Translations under genes and position numbers: made by a program
The notes under the pieces: model-generated
The model's database searches: none
What the model was told of the DNA's origin: nothing
Seen by the model: only the letters and a program-made list of their open reading frames with translations
Part shown: positions 15,051 through 41,956 of the stretch, one piece after another
How the letters are laid out: the number at the start of each line of letters is the position of its first letter
Numbering within the stretch: position 1 is the first letter of the stretch
Origin: Candidatus Woesearchaeota archaeon
GTDB lineage: Archaea > Nanobdellota > Nanobdellia > Woesearchaeales > SM23-78
Direction of reading: 5' to 3'
NCBI GenBank assembly: GCA_016930415.1
Contig: JAFGGS010000016.1
Span: 149,340-213,339, forward strand
Length of the DNA: 64,000 nucleotides

Positions 15051-15066
15051 AAAACCAAGTTGGAGT

Positions 15067-16347
15067 TCAGATTAAACATTTAAACGCAATTCTCTTACCA
15101 TTGGATTCTGTTGGAAACTTATCAAGATAATGGACATTGACTTTATCACAATCCAAGAAAAATTTTAATATCTCTACAAGTCGCTTCACTGAATCCTCTT
15201 TTGTAAACTCATCTTTAACAATATTCAAGTCAACCTCATCCAGAGATTTTTGCACAACCTGGAATTCATTGATGTCAAGATCCTCATCTTCAACTTGAGT
15301 TTTTATAAGACCTCCACTGATGTGCTCTCCTTTCCTGTTCTTCATAACCTCATAAGTCCTTCCAATTGTTATATTAAACTGTTTGAATGGATATGTATCA
15401 GTTAGTGATTTCTTCTCAATCAGTCCTATGTCACCAAGCTTATATCTTATCAGAGGCATAGCATAGCTTTCCAGAGCAGTTATGAGAACTTCTCCATTAA
15501 AGACCTCCACAATCACGAAATCATCTGAAGAGTGCATCACGTAGTTCTTGTCCTCTATGGCTATCGCAGGAATCTCGGTCGCACCATACTGGTCTATAAC
15601 TTGACAGCCGAACACACCCTCAATATATTTTCTCTTTTCCAGACGTTCTGATGAGGATATAATCAGCTTTGGCTTATGGATAGGAATCTTCTTCTCTTTT
15701 ATCAGCTTTGCGATATCATATAATGTTCCGCCAAAACCAAAAAGATAATCTGGCTTGAATTTGTTGTACTTGTTCTGGAACCAATCTATAATGTCAGCTT
15801 CTTTATACTGAAATGTGTCCAGAACTATCTTCCGGTTTATCCTATCAAGCAAGGCATAAAACATCCTGAAGATCACTGGCTTGTTCTTATAGATATCTCC
15901 TGAAAACCAAGCGGATTTTGCACCAATCTCAACTCCAGCGGACTGCCAATCTCGCATCAAGACTGCCTTTGAAATCGCATGATATCTCAAGTCCTTATAC
16001 ACCGTAACTTTATTCCCGGTCGAACCTCCCGACTTGTCTTTTATCGTCCTATAATTTTTAGTGCTTCGCAGCCGGTTAATGTCAGAAAGAATTGTTTTCT
16101 TATCAAGAACAGGAATCTTTTTTAGGTCCTCCAATGAAGCAACGATATTAATATCTTTATAGTGAGGAACAGTATTTTTGGCATGAATAAGCAAGTGGTT
16201 AAGTCTTGCAAGCTGATACTCTCTAACTTGACTTCGGGTCATATTTAGGTTATTGATATACCTGTTAAGATAAAAGAATCTCAGGTCGCCTCTGAGCAAG
16301 TAGACAGCCGGAAGGATAATTCTCCCAAATAAGCGATTCATAATCAT
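15067..16347 (-). CDS. CapK-like adenylate-forming enzyme (phenylacetate-CoA ligase family)
   Basis: DKSGGSTGNKVTVYKDLRYHA (adenylation Ser/Thr-Gly-rich motif) and VFGCQVIDQYGATEIPAIAIEDKN. Paralog of the 39369-40700 gene. Confidence 0.7.
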   Translation of the reverse strand: MIMNRLFGRIILPAVYLLRGDLRFFYLNRYINNLNMTRSQVREYQLARLNHLLIHAKNTVPHYKDINIVASLEDLKKIPVLDKKTILSDINRLRSTKNYRTIKDKSGGSTGNKVTVYKDLRYHAISKAVLMRDWQSAGVEIGAKSAWFSGDIYKNKPVIFRMFYALLDRINRKIVLDTFQYKEADIIDWFQNKYNKFKPDYLFGFGGTLYDIAKLIKEKKIPIHKPKLIISSSERLEKRKYIEGVFGCQVIDQYGATEIPAIAIEDKNYVMHSSDDFVIVEVFNGEVLITALESYAMPLIRYKLGDIGLIEKKSLTDTYPFKQFNITIGRTYEVMKNRKGEHISGGLIKTQVEDEDLDINEFQVVQKSLDEVDLNIVKDEFTKEDSVKRLVEILKFFLDCDKVNVHYLDKFPTESNGKRIAFKCLI

Positions 16348-17093
16348 CGCCTCACCTTTCTTAATACCATATAAAATGCAAACAAGACATTACTGTTGAT
16401 ATAACGCTTCCACATTCTTCTAGGTTCAAGAATGAATCTGTATAACCATTCCAGATTGAGACGCTGAAACAGTAAGGGAGCCCTTTTTCTAGTGCCCGCG
16501 TAGAAATCAAACGCGGCCCCGATAGAAGCAACCAAGGGCACTTTGAGCTTTAACCTGTTTTCATAAGTCCACTTCTCCTGTTTTGGAGCAGTCATTCCCA
16601 CCCAAAGGACATCTGGCTTTGCCTTATTGATTTTCTTGATTATATCACAGTTAACTTTCTTCTCAAAGGGGTATATGGGCGGCGATAAAGTATGGACTTT
16701 GATATTCGGATACTCGCGTTTCATGCGATTCCTGATCATACCCAAGACCTCCTCTGATGATCCCATGAAAAAGTAAGTGAGTCTCTCCTTATTGGCTAGT
16801 CCAGTCAGTTCCATGAAGAAATCCGGACCAGGAACCCTATGATGAAGCCTTGGTTTTATATTGAAAAGGCAAGTGGCAATTGAGATTGAAGCGCCATCAG
16901 GCAACAGAATGTCCGCGTTCTCCAAAGCCTCCCTAAAAAACAAGTCCTCCTGGGCGGCAACAAAGCTGTGGGCGTTAATAGTCTGGACTATATTCGTCTT
17001 TTTTGAGCGTTTTATCAGGCTTAAGGCTAATTTAGCCAGCTCTTCCCTCGATTCAGTATTTATCCTGAAATTATCAATTTTTAGCATTTTCAA
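16344..17093 (-). CDS. WecB/TagA/CpsF-family glycosyltransferase (GT26)
   Basis: LLPDGASI...KPDVLWVGMTAPKQEKW...IGAAFDFYAGTRKRAP...LEWLYRFILEPRRMWKRY matches the family signature. Confidence 0.75.
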   Translation of the reverse strand: MKMLKIDNFRINTESREELAKLALSLIKRSKKTNIVQTINAHSFVAAQEDLFFREALENADILLPDGASISIATCLFNIKPRLHHRVPGPDFFMELTGLANKERLTYFFMGSSEEVLGMIRNRMKREYPNIKVHTLSPPIYPFEKKVNCDIIKKINKAKPDVLWVGMTAPKQEKWTYENRLKLKVPLVASIGAAFDFYAGTRKRAPLLFQRLNLEWLYRFILEPRRMWKRYINSNVLFAFYMVLRKVRR

Positions 17094-19350
17094 AAGCAGT
17101 TATCAAATTATCATAGTTAACATCAGGAGTATATTTGTCAAGGTAATCTTTATAAGCATTTTTGCCCATCAGCACAGTATCATGCCTTATCATAAATAAA
17201 ACTTTCTGCTTCAAGTCATCAATGTTTCCAGGCTCAAAGAATTTGCCCGAAACACCGTCTTTTATCACATATTTCATGTTTCCAATCCTTGATGCCAGCA
17301 CAGGAGTTCCTACAGAGAACGCTTCAATCATAGAGATACCGAAAGTCTCATTCCATTCTGATGAGAATATCATGAATTTGGCTTTCCTGATGCGCTTCAA
17401 ACATTCATCATTAGGCTTTGGACCTTTATAGATTATATTCTTATGGCCCATCAGCAAGGACTTTAATGGTCCAGCACCATATACTTCCAATGGAAAATCA
17501 ATGCCTTTCCACGCAGCCACGAGAGTATGGATTCCCTTCTCAACAGACAATCTGCCGACGTAGATTGCAAACTTACCCTTCTTAAATGTTGGTTCCAAAT
17601 CTCCTTCTGTGAAATTTGGCTTGACAACCAGCTTTTTCTCATCATAACCGGCCTGAATAAATTTATCCTTGACAATCTGAGAATTTGGAAGGAAACAATC
17701 AATTCTGTTCTTATAAGTCTTATCATGAAGCTTCAACATCAAGGCCACGAGGAATGTTAGGATCTTTGAATTCCTATAGCACTTGTATTTGACCCCAATA
17801 AACGGATTGTTATGTTCCAGGCAGAGCTCACAGATCTTATTGTTCCTGAAAAGATAGGCTTTTGGACATATCAATCTGAAGTTTGGAAGCCTCTGAATAG
17901 TAGGCACGCCCTTACAAGCAAAATAAGCAGAAGGACTGATAAGAGGGAAGGTATTGTGGAAGTAGACTATATCAGGCAACCTATATTTTATCAGTCTCCG
18001 GATGTCAAGGTAAGTCTTCACAGAGAACAACGTGTTGAAAGGAAACAAGAGTATCTGAATCCAGTTATACCTCTCAGTCTCCTTATTGTCCCGGGAGTAT
18101 ACTATAACCTCATGTCCTTTTCTCTCCAAAAGATCCTTCTCCATCAAAAACATGGAATCCTCACCACCCCTGCTCACATACTGGTCATGAATCAAGAGAA
18201 CCCTCTGCTTCCTGACCTTAGAATAAATATCCATCAAGAGCGCATAGTTCTTCTCAGCAGTGTACTTTTCCTTGTACTCGTTGAAAGCATTCACACCCAT
18301 CTGCCTGGCTTCCTTAGGATGAGCAATCATCCACTCAACCTTCCTGCGAAGATCATCAGGGTCACCAGGAGAGAACAGCAGCCCAGTTCTCTTGCCATCA
18401 ATTATGTGCTTCATATTTCCAATGTTAGACGATATCACTGGAGTCGCTACCGAAAATGCCTCCAAGATAGTTTTAGGAAAACCCTCGTAGCATTCAGAAG
18501 ATAAGACCAGAAACCTGGCTTTCTTTATCATATCTAAACACTCTTCAATCGGTTTTTGACCATGATAGATCACATTTGGCTTATTCTCAACCAATTTTTT
18601 CAGAGGACCATCTCCAAAAACATGAATAGGAAAATCTATCAACTCCCAGGATTTAACCAGCGTAGCAATACCTTTCTCTTCAGATAATCTCCCTAAATAA
18701 ACTCCAAAATCTTCCTTTTTTGAACCGTGAGGAATTGGCTTCACAATAAAATTAGGCTTGACAATAATTTTATCTGCGGAAAAACCCGCTTCGATAAATT
18801 TGTTCCTGTTAAAATCCGTTAGAGCAATATAGTGGTCAATAACATTCATGAAAGTCTTCTTATGGATTTTTAGCATCAAAGCCAAGATGAAAGTCAACAC
18901 CTTAGAATGTCTATAACAACCGTATTTAACAGCACAAAAAGAATTTTTCTTCTTCAAGCACAATTCACAGACCTTATTATCCCGCAAGAACATGGCTTGA
19001 GGACAAATCAACCTAAAATTATGAAGTGTCTGGACAATCTTCACCTTATTATCTTTACAAGCATAATAAGCTGAAGGGCTAATGAGCGGAAAGAAATTGT
19101 GAAAATGAGCAATATCTGGCGTCTCTTTCTTAATCAGATGATCTAATTCTTTGTAAGTTTTTCTGCAATAAAGGGTTCTAAACGGAAATAATAGTTTCTG
19201 AAAAAAGTTGTAATTATGAATTTCCTCATTATCCCTCATATAAGTTATTATCTGATGACCCTGCGACTCAAGAAGCCTCTTCTCATCCTCAAAAACAGAA
19301 TCCTCTCCGCCTTTGTGTTGGTACTTGTTATGAATTAGTAGGATTTTCAT
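17074..19350 (-). CDS. Fused tandem GT4-GT4 glycosyltransferase (two complete GT-B units in one 758-aa ORF)
   Basis: Each half begins M-KILLIH/RVLLIHDQY-GGED. Each contains a Cys4 insertion (CPQAMFLRDNKVCELCLKK...C and CPKAYLFRNNKICELCLEH...C). Each ends with a GT4 E-x7-E region (FLVLSSECYEGFPKTILEAFSVATPVI and FMIFSSEWNETFGISMIEAFSVGTPVL). Confidence 0.8.
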   Translation of the reverse strand: MKILLIHNKYQHKGGEDSVFEDEKRLLESQGHQIITYMRDNEEIHNYNFFQKLLFPFRTLYCRKTYKELDHLIKKETPDIAHFHNFFPLISPSAYYACKDNKVKIVQTLHNFRLICPQAMFLRDNKVCELCLKKKNSFCAVKYGCYRHSKVLTFILALMLKIHKKTFMNVIDHYIALTDFNRNKFIEAGFSADKIIVKPNFIVKPIPHGSKKEDFGVYLGRLSEEKGIATLVKSWELIDFPIHVFGDGPLKKLVENKPNVIYHGQKPIEECLDMIKKARFLVLSSECYEGFPKTILEAFSVATPVISSNIGNMKHIIDGKRTGLLFSPGDPDDLRRKVEWMIAHPKEARQMGVNAFNEYKEKYTAEKNYALLMDIYSKVRKQRVLLIHDQYVSRGGEDSMFLMEKDLLERKGHEVIVYSRDNKETERYNWIQILLFPFNTLFSVKTYLDIRRLIKYRLPDIVYFHNTFPLISPSAYFACKGVPTIQRLPNFRLICPKAYLFRNNKICELCLEHNNPFIGVKYKCYRNSKILTFLVALMLKLHDKTYKNRIDCFLPNSQIVKDKFIQAGYDEKKLVVKPNFTEGDLEPTFKKGKFAIYVGRLSVEKGIHTLVAAWKGIDFPLEVYGAGPLKSLLMGHKNIIYKGPKPNDECLKRIRKAKFMIFSSEWNETFGISMIEAFSVGTPVLASRIGNMKYVIKDGVSGKFFEPGNIDDLKQKVLFMIRHDTVLMGKNAYKDYLDKYTPDVNYDNLITAFENAKN

Positions 19351-19356
19351 TTCATA

Positions 19357-20406
19357 TCACTTTTCGAAACTTGATTTTTTAGGAAAAAGTTTATTCATCA
19401 AATTGTTAAATTGCACAATCGACTGTTCATTGAGTTTAATGGCTCTATCCTCTTGTATACAAAACATTTTCTGTTTTTTAAACTGGTCATATCTTCTAAG
19501 ATTCTCACCCAAATCATTCGACCAATAAAACATGTCTTTCTCAAATAAATTTACGACAAAAGCCGCCTTCTTCTGATAACATGCCATGTATGGCATTAAC
19601 TGGTTGTGGAGGAGATACATAAACTCCGACCTGAAATGACACCTTCTCGTCATCTCAAAAGCCTCCTTGTATCTTTTTTCGCATTCTCTCATCAGCGTTT
19701 TTGTCATTGGTTGAGGCCGATGAGGCGGAGTGAGTCTGAGCTCCTTTTTCTGAGTCTTATCAAGCAGAAGCTCAGTATTCCTGACAACTTTAGTGACTAG
19801 GTCAAAATCTATCGATAATGGACCTTTTTCGGCAATCTTTCTTCCCAAACGAGGCCTGATACCACCATCCGCAAAAAAGAAATCATCTGCATAAAAAGGT
19901 GCATTCACAAAATAATCATCATTTAGACACAAAAACTGCTCAGTCAAACCAGGAATCTCATGAACATATGACTCCATAGTGGGCGAGTTATACGATGGAA
20001 GATGTTTCTTATCTTTAAAAAGATCTTTATGAAAAACTATCTTCAGGCTGTTGTTCTTCAAGTTTAACCAATTGGGAATTTGTCCATCAGTCAGTATATG
20101 GATCTTATTCAAGTTCTTGAAATTCTTCTCAAGAGCACGTAAAGAGTACTTAAGCTCATTCATCGAGTTCTTAGTATAATCAAATTTATTCTTATAACCA
20201 AGCAAACTCATCCTGTGCCGTTCTCTAGTTCTCAACCAGGAAGGATCATTGAAGTCAGCCCAGAGATAAACTGCATCAATCTTGACATTTTTATCAGGAA
20301 TGCTTCGCTTAAAGAAAGAAGAGAGGGAGAATTTAATAGAGCAATATAAAAGAGACAGACAGTATCTAATTTTGTTTATAATTCTCATTAGCACATCACT
20401 TCTCAA
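19357..20406 (-). CDS. Stealth-family hexose-1-phosphoryltransferase (capsule phosphotransferase-like), copy 1
   Basis: CR1 IDAVYLWADFNDPSWLRTRE, CR2 MNELKYSLRALEKNFKNLNKIHILTDGQIPNWL, CR3 LCLNDDYFVNAPF. Confidence 0.65.
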   Translation of the reverse strand: MRSDVLMRIINKIRYCLSLLYCSIKFSLSSFFKRSIPDKNVKIDAVYLWADFNDPSWLRTRERHRMSLLGYKNKFDYTKNSMNELKYSLRALEKNFKNLNKIHILTDGQIPNWLNLKNNSLKIVFHKDLFKDKKHLPSYNSPTMESYVHEIPGLTEQFLCLNDDYFVNAPFYADDFFFADGGIRPRLGRKIAEKGPLSIDFDLVTKVVRNTELLLDKTQKKELRLTPPHRPQPMTKTLMRECEKRYKEAFEMTRRCHFRSEFMYLLHNQLMPYMACYQKKAAFVVNLFEKDMFYWSNDLGENLRRYDQFKKQKMFCIQEDRAIKLNEQSIVQFNNLMNKLFPKKSSFEK

Positions 20407-21436
20407 AACTCGATTTCTTAGGAAAAAGTTCGCTCATCAGTTGATTAAACTGTTTAATTGCTTTTACATTCAGATGAATTCCCCAATTCTCCTGTATACA
20501 AAAGGATCTCTGCTTCTTGAATTGGCCATATAATAATTTGTTCTTAGATAGGTCATTTGACCAATAGAACATGTCCTTCTCCATGAGATTTATAATAAAA
20601 GAAGTCTTTCCTTCATAATAATACAAATATGACAAAAGATGACTATGCAAAACATATCTCATCTCAGATCTAAAATGACCCTTACGCGTTACTTCAAACT
20701 CCTTAGGATACAAACATTCACATCTTCTCATAAAAGATTTCTTAAGAGGCTGAGGTCTGTGAGCCATAGTAAGTCGCGATTCGGGTTTAAAATCACGATC
20801 AAGAAGAAGATCTGAGTTCTTTATGGCAATAGTATGATGATCCGGATTCTCACCCAAATCGCCCTTTTCCGCAACCTTTCTTCCCAACCTCGGGCGAATC
20901 CCGTCCTTGATAAAGAAATCCTTAGCAGAACAAGGCGCATTCAAGAAAAAATCATCATTAAAATACAAAAAATCTTCTTTCAATCCAGGAATATTATGAA
21001 GATACGACTCAATGACCAAAGGATTGTACGATGGGAGATTCAACCTATCCTTGACAATATCTTTATGATCAACAATCTTTACCCGCGGATTCGAAACATC
21101 CAGCCATTCAGGAACTTGCTTATCTGTCACGATAAATATCCTGTTTAAGTCCTTGAAGTACATCTCCAACGCCCTAATCGAGAATTTTAGTTCATCCATA
21201 GGCTTCGGAAGGCGATGAATTTTGCTGTCAAATCCCAGATATCTCTTTCTATCACATTCTCTTTTCTTAAGCCAAGCTAAGTCAGTGAAATCAGCCCACA
21301 GATATACAACATCAATCTTTTCAGAAGGATTGACAAAAGGCTTCAAATTCACGAATGAAAATAAAATGAATTTTAGATAACAAAATAGGATTTTCAAATA
21401 TTGAAGAAAACAGTTAAGAGTGGTCTTAACGCGCAT
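20396..21436 (-). CDS. Stealth-family hexose-1-phosphoryltransferase, copy 2 (tandem paralog)
   Basis: CR1 IDVVYLWADFTDLAWLKKRE, CR2 MDELKFSIRALEMYFKDLNRIFIVTDKQVPEWL, CR3 LYFNDDFFLNAPC. Shares a conserved C-terminal LFPKKSSFEK with copy 1. Confidence 0.65.
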   Translation of the reverse strand: MRVKTTLNCFLQYLKILFCYLKFILFSFVNLKPFVNPSEKIDVVYLWADFTDLAWLKKRECDRKRYLGFDSKIHRLPKPMDELKFSIRALEMYFKDLNRIFIVTDKQVPEWLDVSNPRVKIVDHKDIVKDRLNLPSYNPLVIESYLHNIPGLKEDFLYFNDDFFLNAPCSAKDFFIKDGIRPRLGRKVAEKGDLGENPDHHTIAIKNSDLLLDRDFKPESRLTMAHRPQPLKKSFMRRCECLYPKEFEVTRKGHFRSEMRYVLHSHLLSYLYYYEGKTSFIINLMEKDMFYWSNDLSKNKLLYGQFKKQRSFCIQENWGIHLNVKAIKQFNQLMSELFPKKSSFEK

Positions 21437-22634
21437 CTTTTTTCACCCCGACAGATGATTTGGAGAGGTTTACCAATCCCGACAGATGAATCAAGAGGTA
21501 TAATTGGAAAGTCGAATAACAAAACGAGGCAGACATAAGACCATCAACGAAAATCACTATAAAAATAATCACCAAAAATGGTTTCAATTTACCATGCAAC
21601 CGCATAAGATCTTTTAAAAGATGGAATAGAAATTTCAACCAAATAAAAAGACCAATCAAACCCGCAGTTAGCAGTATTTCTAAGAACACATTGTGACTGT
21701 GCTTCACATAATCAGTCACAATTAATCTCGAACCTTTGAATCCGTAACCATAAACTGGACTCTTGGCAATGAAAGATAATGATGACAACCAAACTTCAGT
21801 TCTGCCTGTTAGCTCACCCAACGAATCAACAGATTCATCCCTTAGAACAAAATTTGAGATAGTATGAAGATCAGTATTTAAGGCAGACACGAATAACAAT
21901 AGCAACATCAAAACTCCAAATCCAGAAACGCCAACAGAAAATGCGCCCGCAATAATTGATTTTTTCTTCAGCAATAAGTAGAGAAAAGCCACAATAAATG
22001 CAAAATACATCGTTCTAGAATTCGTTAATATTAACCCCACAAAAGAAACAAAGGCCACGGGAAGGTATACAACTCTCTTTTCGTAAGAGAAGAACACTAT
22101 TGAAAACAAGCAAACAATTGCACAAAACATGGCCAAAAGATTCGGGTTTATGGCAAAATATCCCCCATCAAGCCTAGATGAAAAACTCAAATTTGCAAGG
22201 TTTGTTATGAGAGCGACAAAAATCAACAAGGAAAAAATGAAGTAGATAAAAACAACATTTTTCATACCATGTGAAAAATCATTGATTGAATAGAGAACAG
22301 CACCAAACAAAACAACAGCAAGAAATTCAAATATGTAGAAATAATTTACTAAAGGAAGGGCAAAAAATGTATTGACAATAATACCGATGAATGCATAAAT
22401 CCAGAAGAGATGAAATCCCATTTTAAAAGAAGTGGTAAGGAATTTTCTTGGCCTCATGATAATAAAGGACAAAGAGACCGCAAAGAGAATAAGCAAACCC
22501 ACCACATTAGGATCCGAAAATATCTGTACGAGTCCATACGACGATGGATCCCGATCTCCACTCAAAATGGATCTTCCTAGAAGTGGAACTAGAAATAAAA
22601 CAGACAAGACATAAAATTTCAAATTCTTATTCAT
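21426..22634 (-). CDS. Wzy/O-antigen-ligase-like polysaccharide polymerase (multi-TM)
   Basis: About 10 TM helices. Wzy_C-type motifs LTNSRTMYF and HNVFLEILLTAGLIGLFIW. Confidence 0.6.
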   Translation of the reverse strand: MNKNLKFYVLSVLFLVPLLGRSILSGDRDPSSYGLVQIFSDPNVVGLLILFAVSLSFIIMRPRKFLTTSFKMGFHLFWIYAFIGIIVNTFFALPLVNYFYIFEFLAVVLFGAVLYSINDFSHGMKNVVFIYFIFSLLIFVALITNLANLSFSSRLDGGYFAINPNLLAMFCAIVCLFSIVFFSYEKRVVYLPVAFVSFVGLILTNSRTMYFAFIVAFLYLLLKKKSIIAGAFSVGVSGFGVLMLLLLFVSALNTDLHTISNFVLRDESVDSLGELTGRTEVWLSSLSFIAKSPVYGYGFKGSRLIVTDYVKHSHNVFLEILLTAGLIGLFIWLKFLFHLLKDLMRLHGKLKPFLVIIFIVIFVDGLMSASFCYSTFQLYLLIHLSGLVNLSKSSVGVKKDAR

Positions 22635-23729
22635 TTTTATCAGCTACAATATGAATAAACATCTCGTTCAACTTTCTCACAGACGTATCTGTTAACTCTT
22701 GTTTTATTATTTCAATTGATCGCTTCCCACAGGAGAATAGCTTCCTTTTGTCAGCCAAAAATCTTCTAATCTTATTAGCAGAACCACCAACATCATCTGG
22801 ATTTATCACGATGCCATTCTCTTTCACTAAGTCTTCAGCACAACCCGCATATTTTGAGCAGATTACTGGAAGGCCATATGCCAAGGCTTCAGACACCACC
22901 AAACCAAAAGTATCCTGTCTAGTGAAAAAGATGAAGACACTCGCATCTTTATATATCTTATCTAGGTTTTGGGTAAATGATACAAAGGTTATGCCATCCC
23001 TCCCATTGTAGGACATCATCTCATCCACGAATTTCTTGTCAGAGTCTGGTTCTCCAACCAGCGTCAATGAGATGTTCTTAATATTCTTTCTTACCAAGAG
23101 ATATGTCTCAATGAGTTTATCGATGCCTTTTTGGCGTGAAATTCTGCCAACGTAGAGCAGGTTAATTTTCCGCGCTTCAGAATATTTTTTTTTAGATACT
23201 TTAGTAACACAAAGAGAATCAATAGTTAATAGATTCACATAGATCTTTTTTACGCCAATTGACTCGTAATATCTCCTAGTCTCACTCGAGGGAGCCCAGG
23301 CAGCCGCAGCAATTTTCGCCATGCACCTACGTATAAGCTTCTGGAAAAAGTTGCGTTTTGATTCTGATTGCCTAGTAAGCTCTCCCCATAGCACAATCTT
23401 CTTTCTAAAAAGATATGCCCAGACGAATATCTGCAGAAAAGTAAGTCCATATCCTCCACAAACTACAATGTCAGGATTGTAAGTAGATAATCTTGGGATG
23501 GCGTTCCATGAAATCCAAGACCTCTTAAACATTTTAAGAATAAGAGTGTTGAGAGTTTCATAATCAAATTTAATGGAGCTCTTATCGATCGACCAATGAC
23601 GAAAAGCACTCCCCTCCCTCTCAAAGAAAACCTTGAAGTCCACAACCTTGCTTCCCTCCAACTTATTGAAGAGACCAACCCTATAGGGCGCAATAATGTT
23701 AGTTATAAATGCGACTTTTATTTTCTTTC

Positions 23730-23745
<16 letters not shown>
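22627..23745 (-). CDS. GT4 glycosyltransferase
   Basis: LLYVGRISRQKGIDKL...FTRQDTFGLVVSEALAYGLPVICSKYAG is the GT4 signature. Confidence 0.75.
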
Positions 23746-26993
<3,248 letters not shown>

Positions 26994-32151: not shown

Positions 32152-32270
32152 GTTTCTTCCCTTGAGTTGCTATCTTGTCACGACGAAACACACCTCTCTT
32201 TTTAAAACTTTCCATAGTCACCACTAACCGAGAGCAAAGATATTAATCCAAGTCGAAGTCTTGATTCAAA

Positions 32271-34961: not shown

Positions 34962-35469
34962 TTTTCTCCAATTTTAATTTTCCATGCTTGTAGGAGATCC
35001 ACAACGTGCTATATGCACGGTTTAATGTTATAGATAATTCATGAAAAGACATGTTCAACACATCACGAGCATAAATTGTCAAGGTTTCAAGAGGAGATAA
35101 CGACCGATTAGAGAAGATAACACCAGGAACAAACATACCACTCTCATCCAGTTTAAATTCGGAAGAGTACTTCCGCACCGCATTCTTATATGAAGTCCAA
35201 ATAGTACGATCATCCCTACCAAGGAATTTAGCAATTTTGCAGTAATCCAAAGCATAGTTCTCTTTTAGTGTCTTCACCACCACTTCTAACACACCAAGAT
35301 TAGAATTTGAGAATAAACTAAGCGGCAGTCTTAAATACTCTTCCCGTTTCATTACATCTTTATATAATTTAAGGAAATCTTCTAAAACATTGATAAAATT
35401 CACACCCTCAGCAGATGCATGCCTAGATAACCAATTATTTTCACCTAACATATCCAAACCAGCACTCAT
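34945..35469 (-). CDS. Hypothetical protein with two helix-turn-helix-like segments; possible regulator co-transcribed with the beta-helix surface protein
   Basis: 174 aa. HTH-like stretches ALDYCKIAKFLGRDDRTIWTSYKNA and SFHELSITLNRAYSTLWISYKHG. Overlaps the downstream gene start by 17 nt. Confidence 0.45.
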   Translation of the reverse strand: MSAGLDMLGENNWLSRHASAEGVNFINVLEDFLKLYKDVMKREEYLRLPLSLFSNSNLGVLEVVVKTLKENYALDYCKIAKFLGRDDRTIWTSYKNAVRKYSSEFKLDESGMFVPGVIFSNRSLSPLETLTIYARDVLNMSFHELSITLNRAYSTLWISYKHGKLKLEKNERTS

Positions 35470-35669
35470 TAAAAGATATCATTTAACTCAAAGTTATATA
35501 AATATATCGATTTTTACCTATTAAAAATGATAAAATACTTAAATAATAAGTATGATGATATAAAAAAATAAGAAAAATCAAAAAGAAGAAAATCCAATCA
35601 AGAGCACTAAAAGGAAGATTTATAAAGACATGATTTTTCCTTATCGCTCGGTAGTAAATAGAGGATCTA

Positions 35670-36938
35670 ATGGAATATAAACGAGTCCTAAAAGATGGAA
35701 TGCACTTTAGCTTAGGAAAAGTAGGCACAATACTAATAAGCCTGATAAACACAATCATACTGGCAAGATTGTTAACAACCACACAAATGGGTCAATATTC
35801 TCTTTTCCTTATGATAGTAAACTTAGCAGTAGTCATCACATTCACATGGTCAGATAATGCAATAATAAGACATGGAAGAGAAGAATACACCACCTCTAAA
35901 GAGATTAACAAATCATTCTGGGCGAGAAACGTAATCATAGGCCCCGCAACAGCACTCATAACCACAGCCATAATTATTTTCAGAAAAGATATTGCTCAGT
36001 ACATTGGAATGAAAGAAGAAATAATCATATTTATCTTGATCTTATTTATTATTCAAGGAATATTTAATTATATCAACTCAATATTTCAAGGCACAAATCA
36101 GATGCAAAAATCAGCATATCTGCTTCTCTTCCAAAAAGCAATCTATCTTGTAACCATACTAGCATTAATGACTGGATTTTTCCAGATTGACAATCTTTAT
36201 GCCGCAATAATATTTCTTAACTTAAGCTTCATTATAGTCACAGCAATACAACTAATTCAATTCCGATATCATCAGATACTTCCCGCGAAATACAGTAAAC
36301 AGCATCTAAAGAAAATATGGTCATATTCTTGGCCTCACATAATAGGATTTCCAGGAATATACGTGATTAATTATATTGATTTATTTGTCATAAGACAATT
36401 CATGGATCTTGAAGCAGTAGGCACATACAATATTGCATATTTAGGATTTACTAATATATGCACCTCAATAATGCTCATCAACACAGTTATGTTTCCATTG
36501 CTAGTAGAATATAAAACAAAGAAGAATTATGAGGCAATAAGAAAATACCTCTCACACATACCAAAATACACATTCATCTGGATTATTCTTACAATAATAG
36601 GACTGTTCTTATCACCTCATGTGATTCCAGCATTATTCTCAACACAATATGTGAGTTCAATCCCATCGTTTAATATCTTGTTGATAGCTAGCATCGTCTA
36701 TTTCATATATGTGTGCTTAATACCCCTCGTCAACACATTTGACCTAATCATATATTCTCAGACATTCAATGTGATAAAAGCAGGCATCAACATCGGATTG
36801 GATTTCATATTAATACCAAAGATGGGAATTATTGGAGCAGCCTATGGAACTCTGGTTTCATATGCAGTGGGCACGATGCTAATAATCCTGTTACTCATAT
36901 ACAAAAGAAAATTGTTTTTACATACCAAAGAACAATGA
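35670..36938 (+). CDS. Wzx-like oligosaccharide flippase (MOP superfamily)
   Basis: 422 aa with about 12 TM. N-terminus GKVGTILISLINTIILARLLTTTQMGQYSLFL is typical of polysaccharide flippases. Very AT-rich coding sequence. Confidence 0.65.
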   Translation: MEYKRVLKDGMHFSLGKVGTILISLINTIILARLLTTTQMGQYSLFLMIVNLAVVITFTWSDNAIIRHGREEYTTSKEINKSFWARNVIIGPATALITTAIIIFRKDIAQYIGMKEEIIIFILILFIIQGIFNYINSIFQGTNQMQKSAYLLLFQKAIYLVTILALMTGFFQIDNLYAAIIFLNLSFIIVTAIQLIQFRYHQILPAKYSKQHLKKIWSYSWPHIIGFPGIYVINYIDLFVIRQFMDLEAVGTYNIAYLGFTNICTSIMLINTVMFPLLVEYKTKKNYEAIRKYLSHIPKYTFIWIILTIIGLFLSPHVIPALFSTQYVSSIPSFNILLIASIVYFIYVCLIPLVNTFDLIIYSQTFNVIKAGINIGLDFILIPKMGIIGAAYGTLVSYAVGTMLIILLLIYKRKLFLHTKEQ

Positions 36939-38101
36939 AAAACACCATAATACTAGGAATAGAACGTTTCCCTCCAGATTTTACCGGATCAGGATTGAGA
37001 GCATATAGACAAAGCTTAAGGATTCAGAGTAAATACGGCTATAAATTTATCATATTAACTAATAAAAGCAAACAAAAAGAGATAACTAAGGATCTGGAGA
37101 TAATCAGAATCCCTACGATAACACCAAAAATACTTTTACCAATATATCTTATTGAATTATTCATAAGAATTAATTTGATAATGCAGAAAAGGAAAGATGA
37201 TATTAGCCTCATCCACATGTTCTCACTATACTGGTTAAATAGAATGTTAATGTTATCCAACATATTATTCTATAAAAAACCAAGCATACTAGAAGTCACC
37301 TTAGATGGAGACGATGATCCAGTCTCTTTAATAAAAAACAGCCCTCTAGGTAAAATTATAAGCAACCCACTAAAAGCGCTCATGAAAAAAATAGGACTTT
37401 TCATTGTTCAAACCAAAAATAGCAAGAGATCGTGCGAACAAATAGGAATTTCCCAAAAAAAAATATGGCAAAGACCAAATCCAATAGATGAAAAAGTCTT
37501 TGGGAAGATACCATTCAGCAAAATAGAATGCATTAAGAAGAGACTCACACTCCCAAAAGGTATTAATTTAGTGAATATAGGGGCTATTTCCAAAAGAAAA
37601 AATCAGCTTCTATTAGCAAAAGTACTCAAGCAAGTCCAATATCAAGATGTAAACCTACTCTTAATTGGCCCAAAATCAGATAAAAAATATTACAATATTA
37701 TACAAAAACAAATCAAAGAATCAAAACTTGAAAACAGAATTGTCTTTATGGGTGAAAAAACAAACACCCAAGAATACCTCTTAGCAGCAGATATTTTTGT
37801 ATTCTCTTCTGAACGAGAAGGATTTGGAAATGTTTTCGGAGAAGCAATGATATCAGGTCTGCCAATAATAACAACTTATCTGGATGGAATCAGCAAGTTC
37901 ATCAATATTAATAACGGAATTATCATAACAGAAAAGAACGAAGAAGATAAAATAAGAAGATTCGCAAGTGAAATTGACAAAATCATAAGAAAGAAGACCA
38001 CATATAATCGACAAATAATAAGAAATATGGGCATTAAATATTTTTCTGCTAAGAATATAGATCTGCAGTATCATGAAAAATACAATCGGCTGATAAAATG
38101 A
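36935..38101 (+). CDS. GT4 glycosyltransferase
   Basis: LVNIGAISKRKNQLLLAKVLK...FVFSSEREGFGNVFGEAMISGLPIITT has the GT4 EX7E region. Its start overlaps the Wzx stop (ATGA). Confidence 0.75.
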   Translation: MKNTIILGIERFPPDFTGSGLRAYRQSLRIQSKYGYKFIILTNKSKQKEITKDLEIIRIPTITPKILLPIYLIELFIRINLIMQKRKDDISLIHMFSLYWLNRMLMLSNILFYKKPSILEVTLDGDDDPVSLIKNSPLGKIISNPLKALMKKIGLFIVQTKNSKRSCEQIGISQKKIWQRPNPIDEKVFGKIPFSKIECIKKRLTLPKGINLVNIGAISKRKNQLLLAKVLKQVQYQDVNLLLIGPKSDKKYYNIIQKQIKESKLENRIVFMGEKTNTQEYLLAADIFVFSSEREGFGNVFGEAMISGLPIITTYLDGISKFININNGIIITEKNEEDKIRRFASEIDKIIRKKTTYNRQIIRNMGIKYFSAKNIDLQYHEKYNRLIK

Positions 38102-39372
38102 GAAAAATAGAGAATTTAGAGATTTTCCTGTACCTAATAATATTGACAATTCTTACTACAATAATTAGAGTTACAGCAGGAGACTATAAAACATTTACTG
38201 GAAGCCCACTAAGTCACAGCCTATTTTTATTAATAATAAGTACACTATTCATTTTCTTCTTCTTCAAGAAGTATGATTACTTCATTTTAGTATGGTCCTC
38301 AGTTTATTTTGCGGCCCCAATAATAAAAGTACCGGGAACAGAGGTTGGAAGTCTCGGAATACTTAACTTAATATTCCTTCCACTGATGATTTGGAAGATA
38401 TTTGATCTTAAAGACAAAAGATTTTATCTCATACCTGCAATAATATTGCTTTCATTAATCAATTTGGCAGATGTTCCCGCCAGACTAATCATATCGGGAA
38501 TATTCAATTCCTCTGCATTACCAGTATTTCTCCTTTTTGTAGTGAAAAAGTGTAAAAACCCAGAACTACTAATAAAAGGAAGTATATTTATAGCAATAAT
38601 AAATCTTCCACTAACATTTTACGAATATACATCATTGCCCGATTGGGGAGTAATGATTGATTGGAGAGGAATTAGAGTACAAGGGAATCTATTTCATCCA
38701 AATGGATATACACTATTCCTTCTGCCAGTAATTTTACTGACATATGCAAAACTAAGAGAGCGACTGCAGATAAGCACAACAGTCATATTCATAGTTTTTT
38801 TAGTGGCCGACCTATTAACAAGGTCAAGAATTGGACTTATTACGTTAGTTGCCACAATAGGACTGTTTGAGATAATTCACGAAGATAGAAAACACAACCG
38901 AATAAAAAAGATCCTCATTGCGTTTGCAATTGCCGCGACAATAATTATTTTTTTGCAAATAAGAGAGGAACAGAGCAGAATATCTCCTGAGGCCATGGAA
39001 GATAGAACAAAAATCTGGGAGCCAATAATCCCATATATCAAATCCAACCTCCTAATTGGAAATGGTGTGGGCAGCTATGAAGAGCACATGGAAAGCGAGT
39101 TTCATGGTCTCGGACCTCACAATTTATATCTGGGAATATTATTTGAATTCGGAATTATAGGATTAACTCTAATACTACTTTTTGTATGGTCAGTACTTAA
39201 AGAGTTCTTCAAGATGAAAAACTCGGTTTGGCGCACCACAGGAATGGCACTCATAATTGGCATCCTAATTTATTCCATAACAGAATCTAACGCTTTCAAT
39301 CAAGTGTTTGCATTAAACACGTGGATTCTTTTAGGCGCACTGCTATTAATAAAAAAAATGAAAAGAAAATGA
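38098..39372 (+). CDS. Wzy/O-antigen-ligase-like polymerase (multi-TM)
   Basis: About 10-11 TM. Wzy_C-type motif HGLGPHNLYLGILFEFGIIGLTLILLF. Confidence 0.6.
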   Translation: MRKIENLEIFLYLIILTILTTIIRVTAGDYKTFTGSPLSHSLFLLIISTLFIFFFFKKYDYFILVWSSVYFAAPIIKVPGTEVGSLGILNLIFLPLMIWKIFDLKDKRFYLIPAIILLSLINLADVPARLIISGIFNSSALPVFLLFVVKKCKNPELLIKGSIFIAIINLPLTFYEYTSLPDWGVMIDWRGIRVQGNLFHPNGYTLFLLPVILLTYAKLRERLQISTTVIFIVFLVADLLTRSRIGLITLVATIGLFEIIHEDRKHNRIKKILIAFAIAATIIIFLQIREEQSRISPEAMEDRTKIWEPIIPYIKSNLLIGNGVGSYEEHMESEFHGLGPHNLYLGILFEFGIIGLTLILLFVWSVLKEFFKMKNSVWRTTGMALIIGILIYSITESNAFNQVFALNTWILLGALLLIKKMKRK

Positions 39373-40700
39373 AACAAATTATAAGAATCATAGAAGAAAT
39401 AGCGTTAAACCTATTCTTCCTATTAGAAAATGATTTCAGGATGATCTATTTCTACCAATACTGTAGAAACCTGAGAAAAAATAGAGATGAAATAAAACAA
39501 CTACAAGATAAAAAACTCAAGAAGCTGATTGAACACGCATACAGTACTTGTCCATATTACAAAAAAGCATTTGATGATGCAAAAATATCACCAAAATGCA
39601 TAAATTCATCCGAAGATCTGAAGAAAATTCCAAACATCACAAAAGCCGATGTCAACAAGAATAAAAAACAAATGATAAGTCAGAAGTATAATATCAGAAA
39701 ACTAACAAAAGATTTCTCAGGAGGAACAACCGGAGAAGGGGTACAATTTTATAAGGATAAGAGATACATGCAGAAAGCTCGCGCAGTCTGGATGAGAGAC
39801 ATATATGCTCATGGATATAGGCCTGGAGATAAGATGGCTTGGATTTGGGGATCTGAAAGAGAAACCAAAGATTCATCAAAAATAATGAAAAGAATAAGAA
39901 GGATATTAACACGTAAAATTTGGTTCAACCCCACGAATTTTGAAGAGGAAACATTTTACCAATGGATAATTGAAGAATATAATATGTTTAAGCCAAAATT
40001 CATCTACGGATATGAAAACGCAATCTTATCAATGGCAAGATTGATTGAGAAGAGAGGCATAAAAATCCATAAACCCCAGAAGGTTTTTAGTACCTCTGAG
40101 AGCCTGAATAATAGAGATTACCTTGAAAAAGTATTTGGATGTGAAGTAATAGATCAATACGGCTGTCGTGAAGTTCTGGCCTTAGCAATAGAAGATAAAA
40201 ATAAAATAATGCGCTCAGACGATGATTTTGTAATAATTGAAGTTAATGAAAAGAATGAGATTCTACTAACACCTTTGGAAGCATATGGAATGCCACTCAT
40301 ACGATATCGAGTTGGAGATCTTGGAATTAGAAAAAAAAGTCAAAAATCTAACAAACACCCATTCAACAGTTTTGACCTTACACTAGCACGAACATTTGAG
40401 ATGTTTAAAACATCAAATAACACAACCATATACAGTGGAGAGATAATTCATCAAGCAAGCAAGAAAAAAGTGGATGTGGGAGAGTATCAACTAGTGCAAA
40501 ACTCAACAAATCTAATAACAATTAATATCATCGGGAAGAAGAAAGATGTAAAACCAGAAGAAATAGATAAACTTAAGAAAGTTATAACTAAGTTATCAGG
40601 AATAATAGATGTGCGAGTCAAATTTCTCAACAAGAGACTCATCGCCAAGAGCGGAAAGATAATAGCAGCAAAGTGCTTAATAGAATCAAGAGAAAAATGA
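39369..40700 (+). CDS. CapK-like adenylate-forming enzyme (phenylacetate-CoA ligase family), paralog of 15067-16347
   Basis: DFSGGTTGEGVQFYKDKRY and VFGCEVIDQYGCREVLALAIEDKNKIMRSDDDFVIIEV are about 65% identical to VFGCQVIDQYGATEIPAIAIEDKNYVMHSSDDFVIVEV in the other copy. The start is at the internal ATG (39369), overlapping the Wzy stop. Confidence 0.7.
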   Translation: MKQIIRIIEEIALNLFFLLENDFRMIYFYQYCRNLRKNRDEIKQLQDKKLKKLIEHAYSTCPYYKKAFDDAKISPKCINSSEDLKKIPNITKADVNKNKKQMISQKYNIRKLTKDFSGGTTGEGVQFYKDKRYMQKARAVWMRDIYAHGYRPGDKMAWIWGSERETKDSSKIMKRIRRILTRKIWFNPTNFEEETFYQWIIEEYNMFKPKFIYGYENAILSMARLIEKRGIKIHKPQKVFSTSESLNNRDYLEKVFGCEVIDQYGCREVLALAIEDKNKIMRSDDDFVIIEVNEKNEILLTPLEAYGMPLIRYRVGDLGIRKKSQKSNKHPFNSFDLTLARTFEMFKTSNNTTIYSGEIIHQASKKKVDVGEYQLVQNSTNLITINIIGKKKDVKPEEIDKLKKVITKLSGIIDVRVKFLNKRLIAKSGKIIAAKCLIESREK

Positions 40701-41956
40701 AAATCCTCCTTATCAATTACAGGTTCTTCTTTTCAGGCGGACCGGAGAAATACCTGTTCGGGATAATTGATATACTGAAGAGCCACGGCCATGAAGTCAT
40801 TCCGTTCTCAGTCCATGCTAAAAAGAATGAGAATAATCCGTACGAGAAGTTCTTTGCAGATCCCATCGGGGGCGAGGATGCTACTTACTTTGAGGATTAT
40901 AAGAAGACTCCAAAAACAATGCTTCAGATGTTAGATCGCCAGTTCTACTCATTAAGCGTGAAGAAGAGACTTGAAAAGTTAATAATTGAGATGAAGCCAG
41001 ACATATGTTATTTGATGCATCATTATAATAAGCTGTCTCCGAGTGTCATAGATGCCTGCAAGAAACATAAGATCCCAGTGGTCATGAGGCTCTCTGATTT
41101 CTTCATGATATGCCCAAACGCGCTCTTAATAAGGGACGGACGAGTATGCGAGGAGTGCCTGCAAAGAGGCCTTTGGAGAGGTGTAAAGAATAAGTGTGTC
41201 AAGAATTCTCTGTTTGCATCAACTGTAAAAGTGGCTGCCATGAAGCTTCACCGGATCTTAGGGTTATACGAGAAAGTCAGCTACATAATATCGCCTTCAA
41301 GCTTTACAATATCAAAAGTGAGCAAGATTTTCAAGAAGAATAATTTCGTTCACGTACCGACATTCATCAAACCGACAGAAAAATATAATCCTCAGATTGG
41401 AAAGTATGCATTATACGTTGGAAGGACAGAAGAAGAGAAAGGAGTCATGACTCTGATCAAGGCCGCAGAAGGCACCGACCTGAAGGTAAAGATCGTAGGG
41501 AAGTCCAGCACTGAGTACGATCAGAAGATAAGGGATTACCTAAAGTCTAACAATATCAAGAATGTCGAGTTCCCAGGCCCCAAATACGGCAAGGAACTCC
41601 AGAAGATATACCGAAACGCAAGGTTTGTGGTCGTTCCAGCAGAGTGGTATGAGAACATGCCAAACGTAGTCCTGGAAGCGATGCTCTTTAGTAAGCCAAT
41701 AATCGCCTCAGACATAGGATCCCTAAAGGAGCTCATACAAGACGGGCGCAACGGGCTCTTGTTCAAGCCTAAAGACGTAAATGACCTGAAGGATAAGATG
41801 AAGAAGCTCTTCAAGCATGATAAGCTCGTCAGGAAGATGGGCCGGAACGCTTATCATGAAGCAGTAACAAAGTATAACCCTGATATTCATTACGAAAAAC
41901 TGATAAAGGTATTCGAGAAAGCTGTTAAGGAGGAGAATTTAAAATGGAAGCGCTGA
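40697..41956 (+). CDS. GT4 glycosyltransferase with Cys4 zinc-ribbon-like insertion
   Basis: MKILLINYRFFFSGGPEKY...CPNALLIRDGRVCEECLQRGLWRGVKNKC is the same insert type as both halves of the fused GT4-GT4. C-terminal GT4 motif FVVVPAEWYENMPNVVLEAM. Confidence 0.75.
   Translation: MKILLINYRFFFSGGPEKYLFGIIDILKSHGHEVIPFSVHAKKNENNPYEKFFADPIGGEDATYFEDYKKTPKTMLQMLDRQFYSLSVKKRLEKLIIEMKPDICYLMHHYNKLSPSVIDACKKHKIPVVMRLSDFFMICPNALLIRDGRVCEECLQRGLWRGVKNKCVKNSLFASTVKVAAMKLHRILGLYEKVSYIISPSSFTISKVSKIFKKNNFVHVPTFIKPTEKYNPQIGKYALYVGRTEEEKGVMTLIKAAEGTDLKVKIVGKSSTEYDQKIRDYLKSNNIKNVEFPGPKYGKELQKIYRNARFVVVPAEWYENMPNVVLEAMLFSKPIIASDIGSLKELIQDGRNGLLFKPKDVNDLKDKMKKLFKHDKLVRKMGRNAYHEAVTKYNPDIHYEKLIKVFEKAVKEENLKWKR

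Follow-up and report, generated by a model that had tools for sequence, protein, structure and literature searches.

The 64,000-nucleotide stretch of DNA analyzed here (the window) belongs to a metagenome-assembled genome (MAG) of a Candidatus Woesearchaeota archaeon, a member of the DPANN group (assembly GCA_016930415.1, contig JAFGGS010000016.1, forward-strand positions 149,340 to 213,339), and it carries a cell-surface island in which two gene cassettes for glycan assembly point away from each other across two giant surface-protein genes. We read this island as a locus with two non-orthologous glycan cassettes of the Wzx/Wzy type, each of which is a mosaic gained by recombination from lower-GC Woesearchaeota-like relatives (a direction of transfer that we infer), with no duplication in this genome. 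We give this explanation as a whole a probability of about 0.62.

Gene content and composition of the cassettes

Read in their own directions of transcription, both cassettes start with a Wzx-type flippase of the MOP family, a GT4 glycosyltransferase, and a membrane protein with a Wzy_C domain, and both hold a CapK-like ligase and a GT4 with a four-cysteine (Cys4) motif. The map of open reading frames (ORFs) and the Pfam and NCBIfam scans bear out the content, order, and mirror orientation given in the original prediction (Table 1). Cassette 1 runs on the minus strand from 25028 to 15067 in the order Wzx-like, GT4, Wzy_C, Stealth, Stealth, fused GT4-GT4, WecG/TagA, CapK-like. In cassette 2, where chaining by ATGA start/stop overlaps had been proposed, all four overlaps are present (36935, 38098, 39369, and 40697).

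Several of these assignments draw on distant matches. The flippase of cassette 1, whose Pfam match is weak and whose start overlaps the fcl stop by 32 nucleotides (nt), aligns over its full length to a profile built from six Wzx proteins (hhalign probability 93%, E 3.6e-7, 364 columns). The Wzy_C protein of cassette 1 has a weak NCBIfam match to TfpM (E 1e-10), and in both Stealth genes CR2 is far over its cutoff, whereas CR1, CR3, and CR4 are detected only below theirs. The CapK-like protein of cassette 1 is 100% identical to a Woesearchaeota "phenylacetate-CoA ligase family protein," and the roughly 40 members of its clade (40–67% identity) carry the PF27533 CapK_C domain. No named NCBIfam equivalog is matched at cutoff by the glycosyltransferases, the CapK proteins, the radical SAM enzyme, or the archaeosortase, the last of which passes only the generic TIGR04178 model. 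A search for relatives in the Protein Data Bank (PDB) found none for Wzy and only distant PaaK for CapK.

The cysteine insert that had been noticed in the GT4 proteins proves to be a family trait. Its motif, C-x11-CxxC-x12-C, is invariant in all 152 aligned homologues, with both halves of the fused GT4-GT4 counted among them (Cys at 116/128/131/145 and 495/507/510/524). The spacing differs from the classical CxxC...CxxC ribbon, and the motif is a candidate for zinc binding. This family also spans domains of life: a cluster of 988 member sequences from Bacillota (Blautia and others) is 48% identical to the Woesearchaeota protein, which suggests that glycosyltransferases of this type have moved between domains. 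Two duplications lie inside cassette 1: its fused GT4 has halves that are 51% identical to each other, and its tandem Stealth genes are 55% identical, with 72–76% identical DNA repeats (pairs D4 and D12) that mark the duplication. Relatives have either a single GT4 (locus L002) or the fused form (locus L091).

The two cassettes stand out from their surroundings in base composition, for which the window served as the baseline. GC content is 0.377 in cassette 1 and 0.329 in cassette 2 from Wzx to CapK (35670–40700), compared with 0.50–0.52 in the flanking housekeeping DNA and 0.483 from the radical SAM gene to WbaP. The shift is larger still at third codon positions (GC3), with 0.30–0.50 in cassette genes versus 0.57–0.72 in fcl, gmd, and the genes for the radical SAM enzyme, GT4-DUF1972, the archaeosortase, and WbaP. 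The AT-rich character ascribed to the cassettes is thus real, but the value of about 30% GC that went with it is too low for cassette 1. The steps in GC content are sharp, at ~15,050, at 25,000–25,050, and at ~40,700, the junction between CapK and the Cys4-GT4 of cassette 2. At the overlap of fcl with the cassette 1 Wzx gene, GC content rises from 0.36 to 0.53 within ~150 bp. The fcl and gmd genes, upstream of cassette 1 on the same strand, are core-like in composition (GC 0.47–0.50, region 0.489; GC3 0.62).

On the right side, the low-GC tract does not coincide with cassette 2 as originally delimited. It extends from ~30,600 to ~40,700, beginning inside giant1 and taking in the 5' third of that gene, giant2, a small gene, and the genes from Wzx to CapK, and it stops before the Cys4-GT4. 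By both composition and conservation, the Cys4-GT4 at 40697 belongs with the backbone that follows and not with the variable cassette. This backbone also contains the only WbaP-type initiating transferase, which lies outside both cassettes, and a Wzz/GNVR protein, which matches the NCBIfam chain-length families of exopolysaccharide (EPS) synthesis below cutoff.

Table 1. Features of the surface island and of its surroundings in the window (aa, amino acids; nt, nucleotides; TM, transmembrane)
Feature	Positions	Strand	Evidence and remarks
Split RNA polymerase subunit B (RpoB) fragment	195–1706	minus	503 aa, covers Rpb2 domains 1–3
113-nt tRNA	2034–2146	minus	Rfam match only, missed by ARAGORN; adjoins tRNA-Asp
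BacA	11652–12428		
Cassette 1 CapK-like adenylate-forming (PaaK/F390-synthetase-like) ligase	15067–16347	minus	weak NCBIfam PaaK/F390 matches; PDB PaaK E 2e-8
Cassette 1 WecG/TagA/CpsF-family glycosyltransferase	16344–17093	minus	PF03808 E 2e-53; TIGR00696 140.9 bits vs cutoff 69
Cassette 1 fused GT4-GT4	17074–19350	minus	758 aa; two Glycos_transf_1 stretches
Cassette 1 tandem Stealth genes, putative hexose-1-phosphate transferases	19357–20406 and 20396–21436	minus	Stealth_CR2 E 1.7e-34 and 3.1e-34
Cassette 1 Wzy_C-domain membrane protein (polymerase, ligase, or O-oligosaccharyltransferase superfamily)	21426–22634	minus	PF04932 E 6.6e-19
Cassette 1 GT4 glycosyltransferase	22627–23745	minus	PF00534 E 1.6e-29
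Cassette 1 divergent MOP-family (Wzx-like) flippase	23730–25028	minus	Pfam Polysacc_synt_3 E 0.016 (weak)
fcl	24997–25941	minus	GDP-L-fucose synthesis; Epimerase E 2.7e-57
gmd	25944–26993	minus	GDP-L-fucose synthesis; GDP_Man_Dehyd E 7e-152
Giant surface protein 1 (giant1)	27253–32151	minus	1632 aa; signal peptide, FG-GAP beta-propeller, Cys-rich MopE-type repeats, C-terminal TM helix and basic tail (Pfam)
Giant surface protein 2 (giant2)	32271–34961	minus	896 aa; GC 0.40; N-terminal signal-like segment, C-terminal TM helix and basic tail
Small protein with two helix-turn-helix-like repeats	34945–35469	minus	174 aa; repeats RDDRTIWTSY and NRAYSTLWISY; overlaps giant2 start by 17 nt
Divergent intergenic region	35470–35669		~30% GC, TATA-like elements
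Cassette 2 Wzx (MOP flippase)	35670–36938	plus	PF01943 E 5e-22
Cassette 2 GT4	36935–38101	plus	PF00534 E 5e-23
Cassette 2 Wzy_C-domain membrane protein	38098–39372	plus	PF04932 E ~2e-13
Cassette 2 CapK-like ligase	39369–40700	plus	NCBIfam PaaK/F390 families E 1e-25; last low-GC gene
Cys4-GT4	40697–41956	plus	GC 0.426, GC3 0.54
Radical SAM/SPASM	41944–42921	plus	backbone
GT4 with DUF1972	42926–44044	plus	backbone
Exosortase/archaeosortase-family protein	44051–45082	plus	PF09721 43.2 bits vs 25.7; TIGR04178 55.9 vs 23
WbaP-type polyprenyl-phosphate hexose-1-phosphate transferase	45079–46407	plus	TIGR03025 330.6 bits vs cutoff 295.6
Wzz/GNVR chain-length-determinant-like protein	47273–48115	plus	PF02706 and PF13807 above cutoffs
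Cbf5	55229–56224		DKCLD, TruB, and PUA domains

Related loci and the origin of the cassettes

Loci of relatives, labeled L002–L092, place the two cassettes in different company; P0002 denotes the best match to the CapK of cassette 1. The distal end of cassette 1 has counterparts in L091 and L092, where a 767-amino-acid fused GT4, WecG, and CapK are 63%, 66%, and 65% identical to those of the window and are followed by an ATP-grasp gene and UvrBA. GC content in L091 is 0.26–0.31 across the whole contig, UvrAB included. A shorter version is found in L002 (GC 0.34), with a single Cys4-GT4 that is 59% identical to the C-terminal half of the fused GT4, WecG at 62%, CapK at 61%, and an ATP-grasp gene. 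On the P0002 contig, the order is WecG, CapK, ATP-grasp, BacA, which recalls the BacA gene of the window. The ATP-grasp ligase gene that follows CapK in L002, L091, and the P0002 contig is missing in the window, where a convergent M14 peptidase gene abuts CapK (15050–15067).

Cassette 2 resembles another set of loci, all with a GC content of 0.34–0.37. In L004/L009, three giant genes and the small gene share one strand, and divergent from them are Wzx (45%), a distant PaaK-like gene, Wzy (42%), GT4 (30%), CapK (44%), Cys4-GT4 (69%), and a radical SAM gene. In L087, Wzx (49%), Wzy (40%), and CapK (42%) are divergent from giant1-like proteins (46%). In the comparison with L009, identity is 44% for CapK and 69% for the adjoining Cys4-GT4, an abrupt rise at the same junction as the GC step (~40,700). 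Cys4-GT4, radical SAM, and GT4-DUF1972 are found together again in L032. The radical SAM/SPASM gene is kept between the two glycosyltransferase genes in several loci (L009, positions 1–299; L032, positions 666–1640), is absent from L003, and has NCBIfam matches that are all far below their cutoffs.

A comparison that bears on replacement is with another Woesearchaeota MAG, GCA_016933095.1 (L003/L005). Its backbone is close to that of the window, with GT4-DUF1972 at 73%, the archaeosortase at 69%, and WbaP at 72%, and it has the small gene at 44%. The slot next to this backbone in L003 contains Wzx (22%), an Asn-synthase-like gene, an unknown gene, GT2, CapK, Wzy, a Cys4-like GT4 (34%), and a methyltransferase. 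From the alignments, L003 and the window appear as a classical case of conserved flanks around a replaced center. A scan of a genome collection with the archaeosortase alignment returned only two loci, one being L003 and the other ending at a contig edge before the upstream slot. No second cassette lies beyond the giant1-like gene in L087, L088, or L089, so the two-cassette arrangement is seen only in this genome. The suggestion that these are independently acquired, variable glycan cassettes fits the evidence: each cassette has closer relatives in lower-GC Woesearchaeota-like contigs than in the other cassette, and a related MAG has a different gene set in the cassette 2 slot. We envision that cassette 2, giant2, the small gene, and the 5' part of giant1 would together fill a variable slot beside the conserved backbone (Cys4-GT4, radical SAM, GT4, archaeosortase, WbaP, and Wzz), and that the two cassettes would be at different stages of amelioration, at GC 0.38 and 0.33 in a genome near 0.50.

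The similar layout of the cassettes could also have arisen within this genome, if an ancestral Wzx-GT4-Wzy-CapK-Cys4-GT4 cassette had been copied, inverted across the giant genes, and left to diverge. Such a duplication, which the original prediction had offered as one option, would explain the common Wzx, GT4, Wzy start and the presence of a CapK-clade ligase and a Cys4-GT4 in both. The term "paralogous" holds for part of the gene set, in that the CapK pair and the Cys4-GT4 pair are specifically related, beyond what random GT4 proteins show, but the Wzx, Wzy, and plain GT4 pairs are related only at the superfamily level. In blastp comparisons, the Wzx pair matches at 27% over 83 amino acids (E 1e-3), the Wzy pair at 25% over 95 (E 1.3e-4), and the GT4 pair at 27% over 165, marginal matches that span E 1e-3 to 6e-12. 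The two CapK proteins are 37–38% identical over their full length by blastp and global alignment. Stretches of about 65% identity had been reported between them; the best 30-residue block does reach 70%, but the next blocks are at 53–57% against a global 37%. Each of the specific pairs has closer relatives elsewhere than in the other cassette. The CapK of cassette 1 has four database proteins at 60–67% and about 40 at 40% or more, after which identity drops abruptly to generic PaaK-like proteins at 31% or less; the CapK of cassette 2 falls in the same clade, at 37–45% to its members, with its best matches at 44–45%. In an all-against-all blastp, the Cys4-GT4 of cassette 2 matches either half of the fused GT4 at 30% identity, as compared with 44–70% to more than 120 homologues, the closest at 69–70%. 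Gene orders of the Wzx, glycosyltransferase, Wzy type, with a GT4 close to CapK, are common among Woesearchaeota-like loci, and the two cassettes differ in GC content. The duplication model is thus largely refuted on these comparisons and we consider it very improbable; the resemblance of the cassettes would stem from common modules typical of Woesearchaeota.

Transfer could be dispensed with altogether if the cassettes were ancient residents in which fast-evolving, weakly expressed surface genes had drifted toward AT in place. The low-GC tract does reach beyond glycan genes, taking in the variable 5' part of giant1 as well as giant2; against the same relatives, conservation of island genes (42–49%) falls short of that of the backbone (69–73%); and the position of cassette 1 beside BacA is common to the P0002 contig. 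Drift in place has more difficulty with the size of the GC3 shift (0.30–0.43 versus 0.57–0.72) and with steps that fall at gene junctions within 150 bp. Nor does it account for cassette content that is replaced in L003, not merely diverged, or for best homologues that lie in genomes whose overall GC content fits the cassettes. We regard it as improbable. A phase-variable switch, in which inversion or slipped-strand mispairing toggles the cassettes, had also been suggested, and the divergent orientation and the single 9-nt homopolymer in each stand-alone GT4 gene (T9 at 23185, A9 at 37455) would suit it. The checks of the cassette borders for inverted repeats and of the window for recombinases and repeat tracts came out empty. 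No inverted repeat longer than 31 nt flanks or brackets the cassettes, and the top pair (19323 and 40695; 30 nt, 80% complementary) simply reflects homology between the 5' coding ends of the two Cys4-GT4 genes. Family scans of the window ORFs returned no recombinase or integrase. There are no multi-unit simple repeats, and the T9 and A9 runs are the only homopolymers of at least 9 nt; by our own estimate, one A9/T9 per 5–10 kb at 33–38% GC is about what chance would give. Phase variation is therefore unsupported, and we place its likelihood near zero.

Giant surface proteins and their possible link to the cassettes

The genes between the cassettes encode two giant proteins that have a domain of ~148 amino acids in common (54% identity). 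Homologues of the N-terminal part of giant1 are found at 44–52% in Woesearchaeota/Nanoarchaeia records. The Cys-rich C-terminal repeats of giant1 (27253–30500; 438-nt period, 76% identity) and the shared domain (32550–32850 in giant2) have a GC content of 0.50–0.57, whereas it is 0.34–0.42 in the N-terminal FG-GAP region of giant1 and in giant2 outside the shared domain. With this contrast inside each of them, the giant genes look mosaic.

The small gene that overlaps the start of giant2 has 369 metagenome relatives. In 13 of 22 long loci, the next gene downstream of it is an ORF of 800 to more than 3300 amino acids, which it often overlaps, and in L066, L073, L076, L080, and L083 its domain stands at the C-terminus of a giant ORF. 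A Wzx cassette stands beside the small gene in 4 of the 22, including the two best-scoring matches, L007 and L009. The small protein may serve the giant surface-protein genes of DPANN archaea as a dedicated regulator or partner. The intergenic region between the small gene and cassette 2 presumably holds promoters for the small gene and giant2 on one side and for cassette 2 on the other.

Both giant proteins are rich in sequons, as had been predicted, with 48 versus 15.5 expected in giant1 (z 9.2) and 25 versus 14.5 in giant2 (z 3.1) in a shuffle test. The highest enrichment in the window is, however, that of a distant 1654-amino-acid protein (5736–10700, minus strand; 66 versus 20 expected, z 10.5), and the M14 peptidase is enriched too (z 4.6). 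Cytoplasmic proteins are at about 0, and a 1164-amino-acid surface protein (50115–53609) has no enrichment (z 0.4). Because the distant protein and the peptidase have it as well, enrichment appears to be common among secreted proteins and implies no special tie between the cassettes and the adjacent giants.

The C-termini of the surface proteins fall into several kinds. Those of giant1 (27253–27390), giant2 (32271–32400), and the 50115–53609 product (50115–50250), all on the minus strand, and that of a 610-amino-acid protein of L005 (19185–21017) have the pattern [VI]TG-x2-[IVL]-[GK], 6–15 residues, a transmembrane helix, and a basic tail. Known models for C-terminal sorting (NCBIfam CTERM) gave no match on the giants. 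From these four cases, the pattern is a candidate for the sorting signal that the unclassified archaeosortase-family protein encoded nearby would recognize. The 1654-amino-acid protein has a PGF-pre-PGF domain (TIGR04213, E 6.5e-23), acidic double-disulfide repeats, and a His-rich tail, HHADHRHHEHHSHHESHGHEHHEKKD, instead of a transmembrane anchor. The M14 carboxypeptidase (13089–15050, plus strand) ends in the short motif AGWPEHLIIHAL. In L006, L007, L009, L016, and L032, many giant or surface proteins end in this motif as well (GW[PST]xxx[IV]xxAL), which marks an unannotated C-terminal domain. L006 (CAZOPU010000008.1) is labeled "uncultured Methanosarcinales archaeon," but has a GC content of 0.35 and an archaeosortase-family protein 51% identical to that of the window, and it may be a misbinned DPANN contig.

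The original prediction had the glycan island decorating the adjacent giants. It is conceivable that the cassettes build lipid-linked glycans for the giant proteins, as agl-type clusters would, with N-linked transfer by an AglB encoded elsewhere or O-linked transfer by Wzy_C oligosaccharyltransferases. In addition to the sequons of the giants, this possibility can draw on the Wzx cassettes that are divergent from small-gene/giant arrays in the closest relatives, L007 and L009, and from giant1-like genes in L087. The Wzy_C family includes the PglL and TfpM O-oligosaccharyltransferases, to the second of which cassette 1 has its weak match, and archaeal agl clusters are variable and use Wzx-like flippases. 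No AglB/STT3 match was found in the scanned window ORFs of at least 100 amino acids, and such a gene may lie elsewhere in the genome. The enrichment for sequons is equally strong in the distant 1654-amino-acid protein and in the M14 peptidase, an adjacent cassette is present in just 4 of the 22 long small-gene/giant loci, and polymer synthesis typically involves a Wzz/GNVR protein and a WbaP primer. Together with Wzy_C, these last two suggest that the product is a polymer and not an N-glycan oligosaccharide, and we consider glycosylation of the giants doubtful. More speculative again is a single DPANN-specific system for surface assembly, made up of the unclassified archaeosortase-family protein, with its conserved partners WbaP and Wzz, and exchangeable Wzx/Wzy cassettes beside the giant, adhesin-like proteins, in which the archaeosortase would cleave the C-terminal signal of the giants and join them covalently to the lipid-linked glycopolymer of the cassettes, or in which the Wzy_C proteins would act on the giants as O-oligosaccharyltransferases. 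We hold this to be a long shot; were it true, a cassette swap would re-coat the host-contact apparatus.

Proposed pathway, known systems, and implications

Family functions allow a pathway to be proposed for the two cassettes. The single backbone WbaP would load hexose-1-phosphate onto polyprenyl (dolichyl) phosphate and so serve both cassettes. In cassette 1, WecG, the double Cys4-GT4, GT4, and the two Stealth sugar-phosphate transferases would extend the lipid-linked unit; in cassette 2, GT4 and the backbone Cys4-GT4 would do so. From what is established for the Stealth family, the pair in cassette 1 is predicted to introduce sugar-1-phosphate (phosphodiester) linkages. The CapK-like adenylate-forming ligase might then amidate the carboxylate of a uronic acid, a step modeled on VpsH. 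Each unit would be flipped by its own Wzx and polymerized by its own Wzy_C protein, and Wzz would set the chain length. The sequences themselves show the family memberships, the steps in GC content, the closer relatives in other genomes, and the replaced center between conserved flanks; the chemistry, the common priming enzyme, and the biological role are inferred.

The model for the ligase comes from a 2026 study of the VPS exopolysaccharide of Vibrio cholerae (PMC13463779). There, the first sugar of the repeat unit is glucose, placed by the initiating phosphoglycosyl transferase VpsL; VpsK, which is of the WecG type, adds an N-acetylhexosaminuronic acid (HexNAcA); and VpsH, a predicted relative of phenylacetate-CoA ligase that is partly CapK-like, is needed for the addition of glycine to HexNAcA on the lipid-linked disaccharide (PMC13463779). 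VpsH is the only enzyme of this type known to amidate a lipid-linked uronic acid. Cassette 1 likewise has a PaaK-like ligase beside a WecG-family gene in a WbaP-primed locus, and the pairing of WecG with CapK is kept in L002, L091, and the P0002 contig. Because WbaP, WecG, and CapK mirror the logic of VpsL, VpsK, and VpsH, we predict that the GT4GT4-WecG-CapK module installs a HexNAc-uronic acid and then amidates it, its CapK-like enzyme being a putative ligase of the VpsH type. The likeness to the VPS module extends to the WbaP/WcaJ-type initiator, GT4s, Wzx, and a Wzy-like protein. Unlike it, the window is without VpsA and VpsB, which serve UDP-ManNAcA synthesis, and without the VpsJ epimerase, and cassette 2 has CapK without WecG. 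Literature searches linking CapK with phenylacetate-CoA ligase, or F390 synthetase with capsule, returned no papers; the VpsH paper surfaced otherwise.

Other known systems share parts of this design. Like bacterial Wzx/Wzy clusters for O-antigen or capsule, the island has a MOP flippase, Wzy_C, several GT4s, a chain-length protein, and a WbaP-type initiator, together with a GC content well below that of the genome, conserved flanks around a replaced center, and ATGA translational coupling. It differs in that its DPANN host has no outer membrane or lipopolysaccharide, the carrier is presumably dolichyl phosphate, its two cassettes share one WbaP and one Wzz, and it is linked to archaeosortase-family and giant genes. 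The original prediction had called the cassettes O-antigen-like. The archaeal marker genes of the window, which comprise the split RpoB fragment, Cbf5, an exosome RNase PH subunit, RNA 3'-phosphate cyclase, and AMMECR1, identify the host as an archaeon, to which that label does not apply in its literal sense. In addition, two cassette proteins are 100% identical to proteins recorded at NCBI under Candidatus Woesearchaeota archaeon. The 113-nt tRNA fits as well, because a tRNA seen by Rfam but not by ARAGORN probably carries an intron.

PEP-CTERM/exosortase-associated EPS loci, reportedly described along with archaeosortase systems by Haft et al., have in common with the island an exosortase- or archaeosortase-family protein beside a WbaP-type transferase, GT4s, and a chain-length determinant, as well as surface proteins with a transmembrane helix and basic tail. 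Unlike in those loci, the archaeosortase-family protein of the window fits no named subfamily and its giants match no CTERM model. Among archaea, Haloferax has two surface-glycosylation (agl) clusters, one of them highly variable (PMC5867893), and Haloquadratum walsbyi has the cell-wall island GI1 (PMC4535781). The likeness to these lies in two glycan clusters per genome, variability among relatives, surface glycoprotein genes nearby, and a proposed role in surface diversification. The haloarchaeal systems carry out AglB-dependent N-glycosylation without Wzy or Wzz, whereas the window has polymerase-like and chain-length proteins and no AglB was found in it. We conclude that the locus, though its host is unusual, is a Wzx/Wzy glycan island of an ordinary kind, shuffled horizontally as is known for O-antigen, capsule, and archaeal agl loci, and not a new kind of system.

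A number of observations tell against this explanation. With respect to transfer, no mobility genes, integrases, tRNA targets, or direct repeats were found at the borders, the only tRNAs in the window being at 2034–2327. The low GC content could in part reflect AT-biased drift of fast-evolving surface genes. Because WecG and CapK are followed by BacA in the P0002 contig as in the window, this site may have held the distal module of cassette 1 for a long time. A strain-level comparison by exact look-up of the gmd and archaeosortase proteins found a single sample, SRR13394437, with DNA identical to the window. With respect to function, the Wzy_C proteins could be polymerases, ligases, or O-oligosaccharyltransferases, which sequence alone does not distinguish. 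The VpsH-type role of the CapK proteins of the window is putative, drawn from family descriptions, and neither wecB nor wecC, for UDP-ManNAcA synthesis, is present in the window.

Woesearchaeota and other DPANN archaea are uncultivated and probably host-dependent, and their surface is the interface with hosts and viruses. The outcome of the arrangement described here is probably two surface glycopolymers, alternative or co-expressed, that diversify the cell surface. The island suggests that DPANN archaea diversify their surface as bacteria do their O-antigens and capsules, keeping a conserved backbone while low-GC Wzx/Wzy cassettes are exchanged by recombination, and that a module of CapK-like ligase and Cys4-GT4 is a recurrent trait of Woesearchaeota/DPANN glycans. 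Where WecG and CapK occur as a pair, the example of VpsK and VpsH allows them to be read as adding a HexNAc-uronic acid and then amidating it. The findings can be used for annotation and provide a reasonable hypothesis for the surface biology of DPANN archaea.

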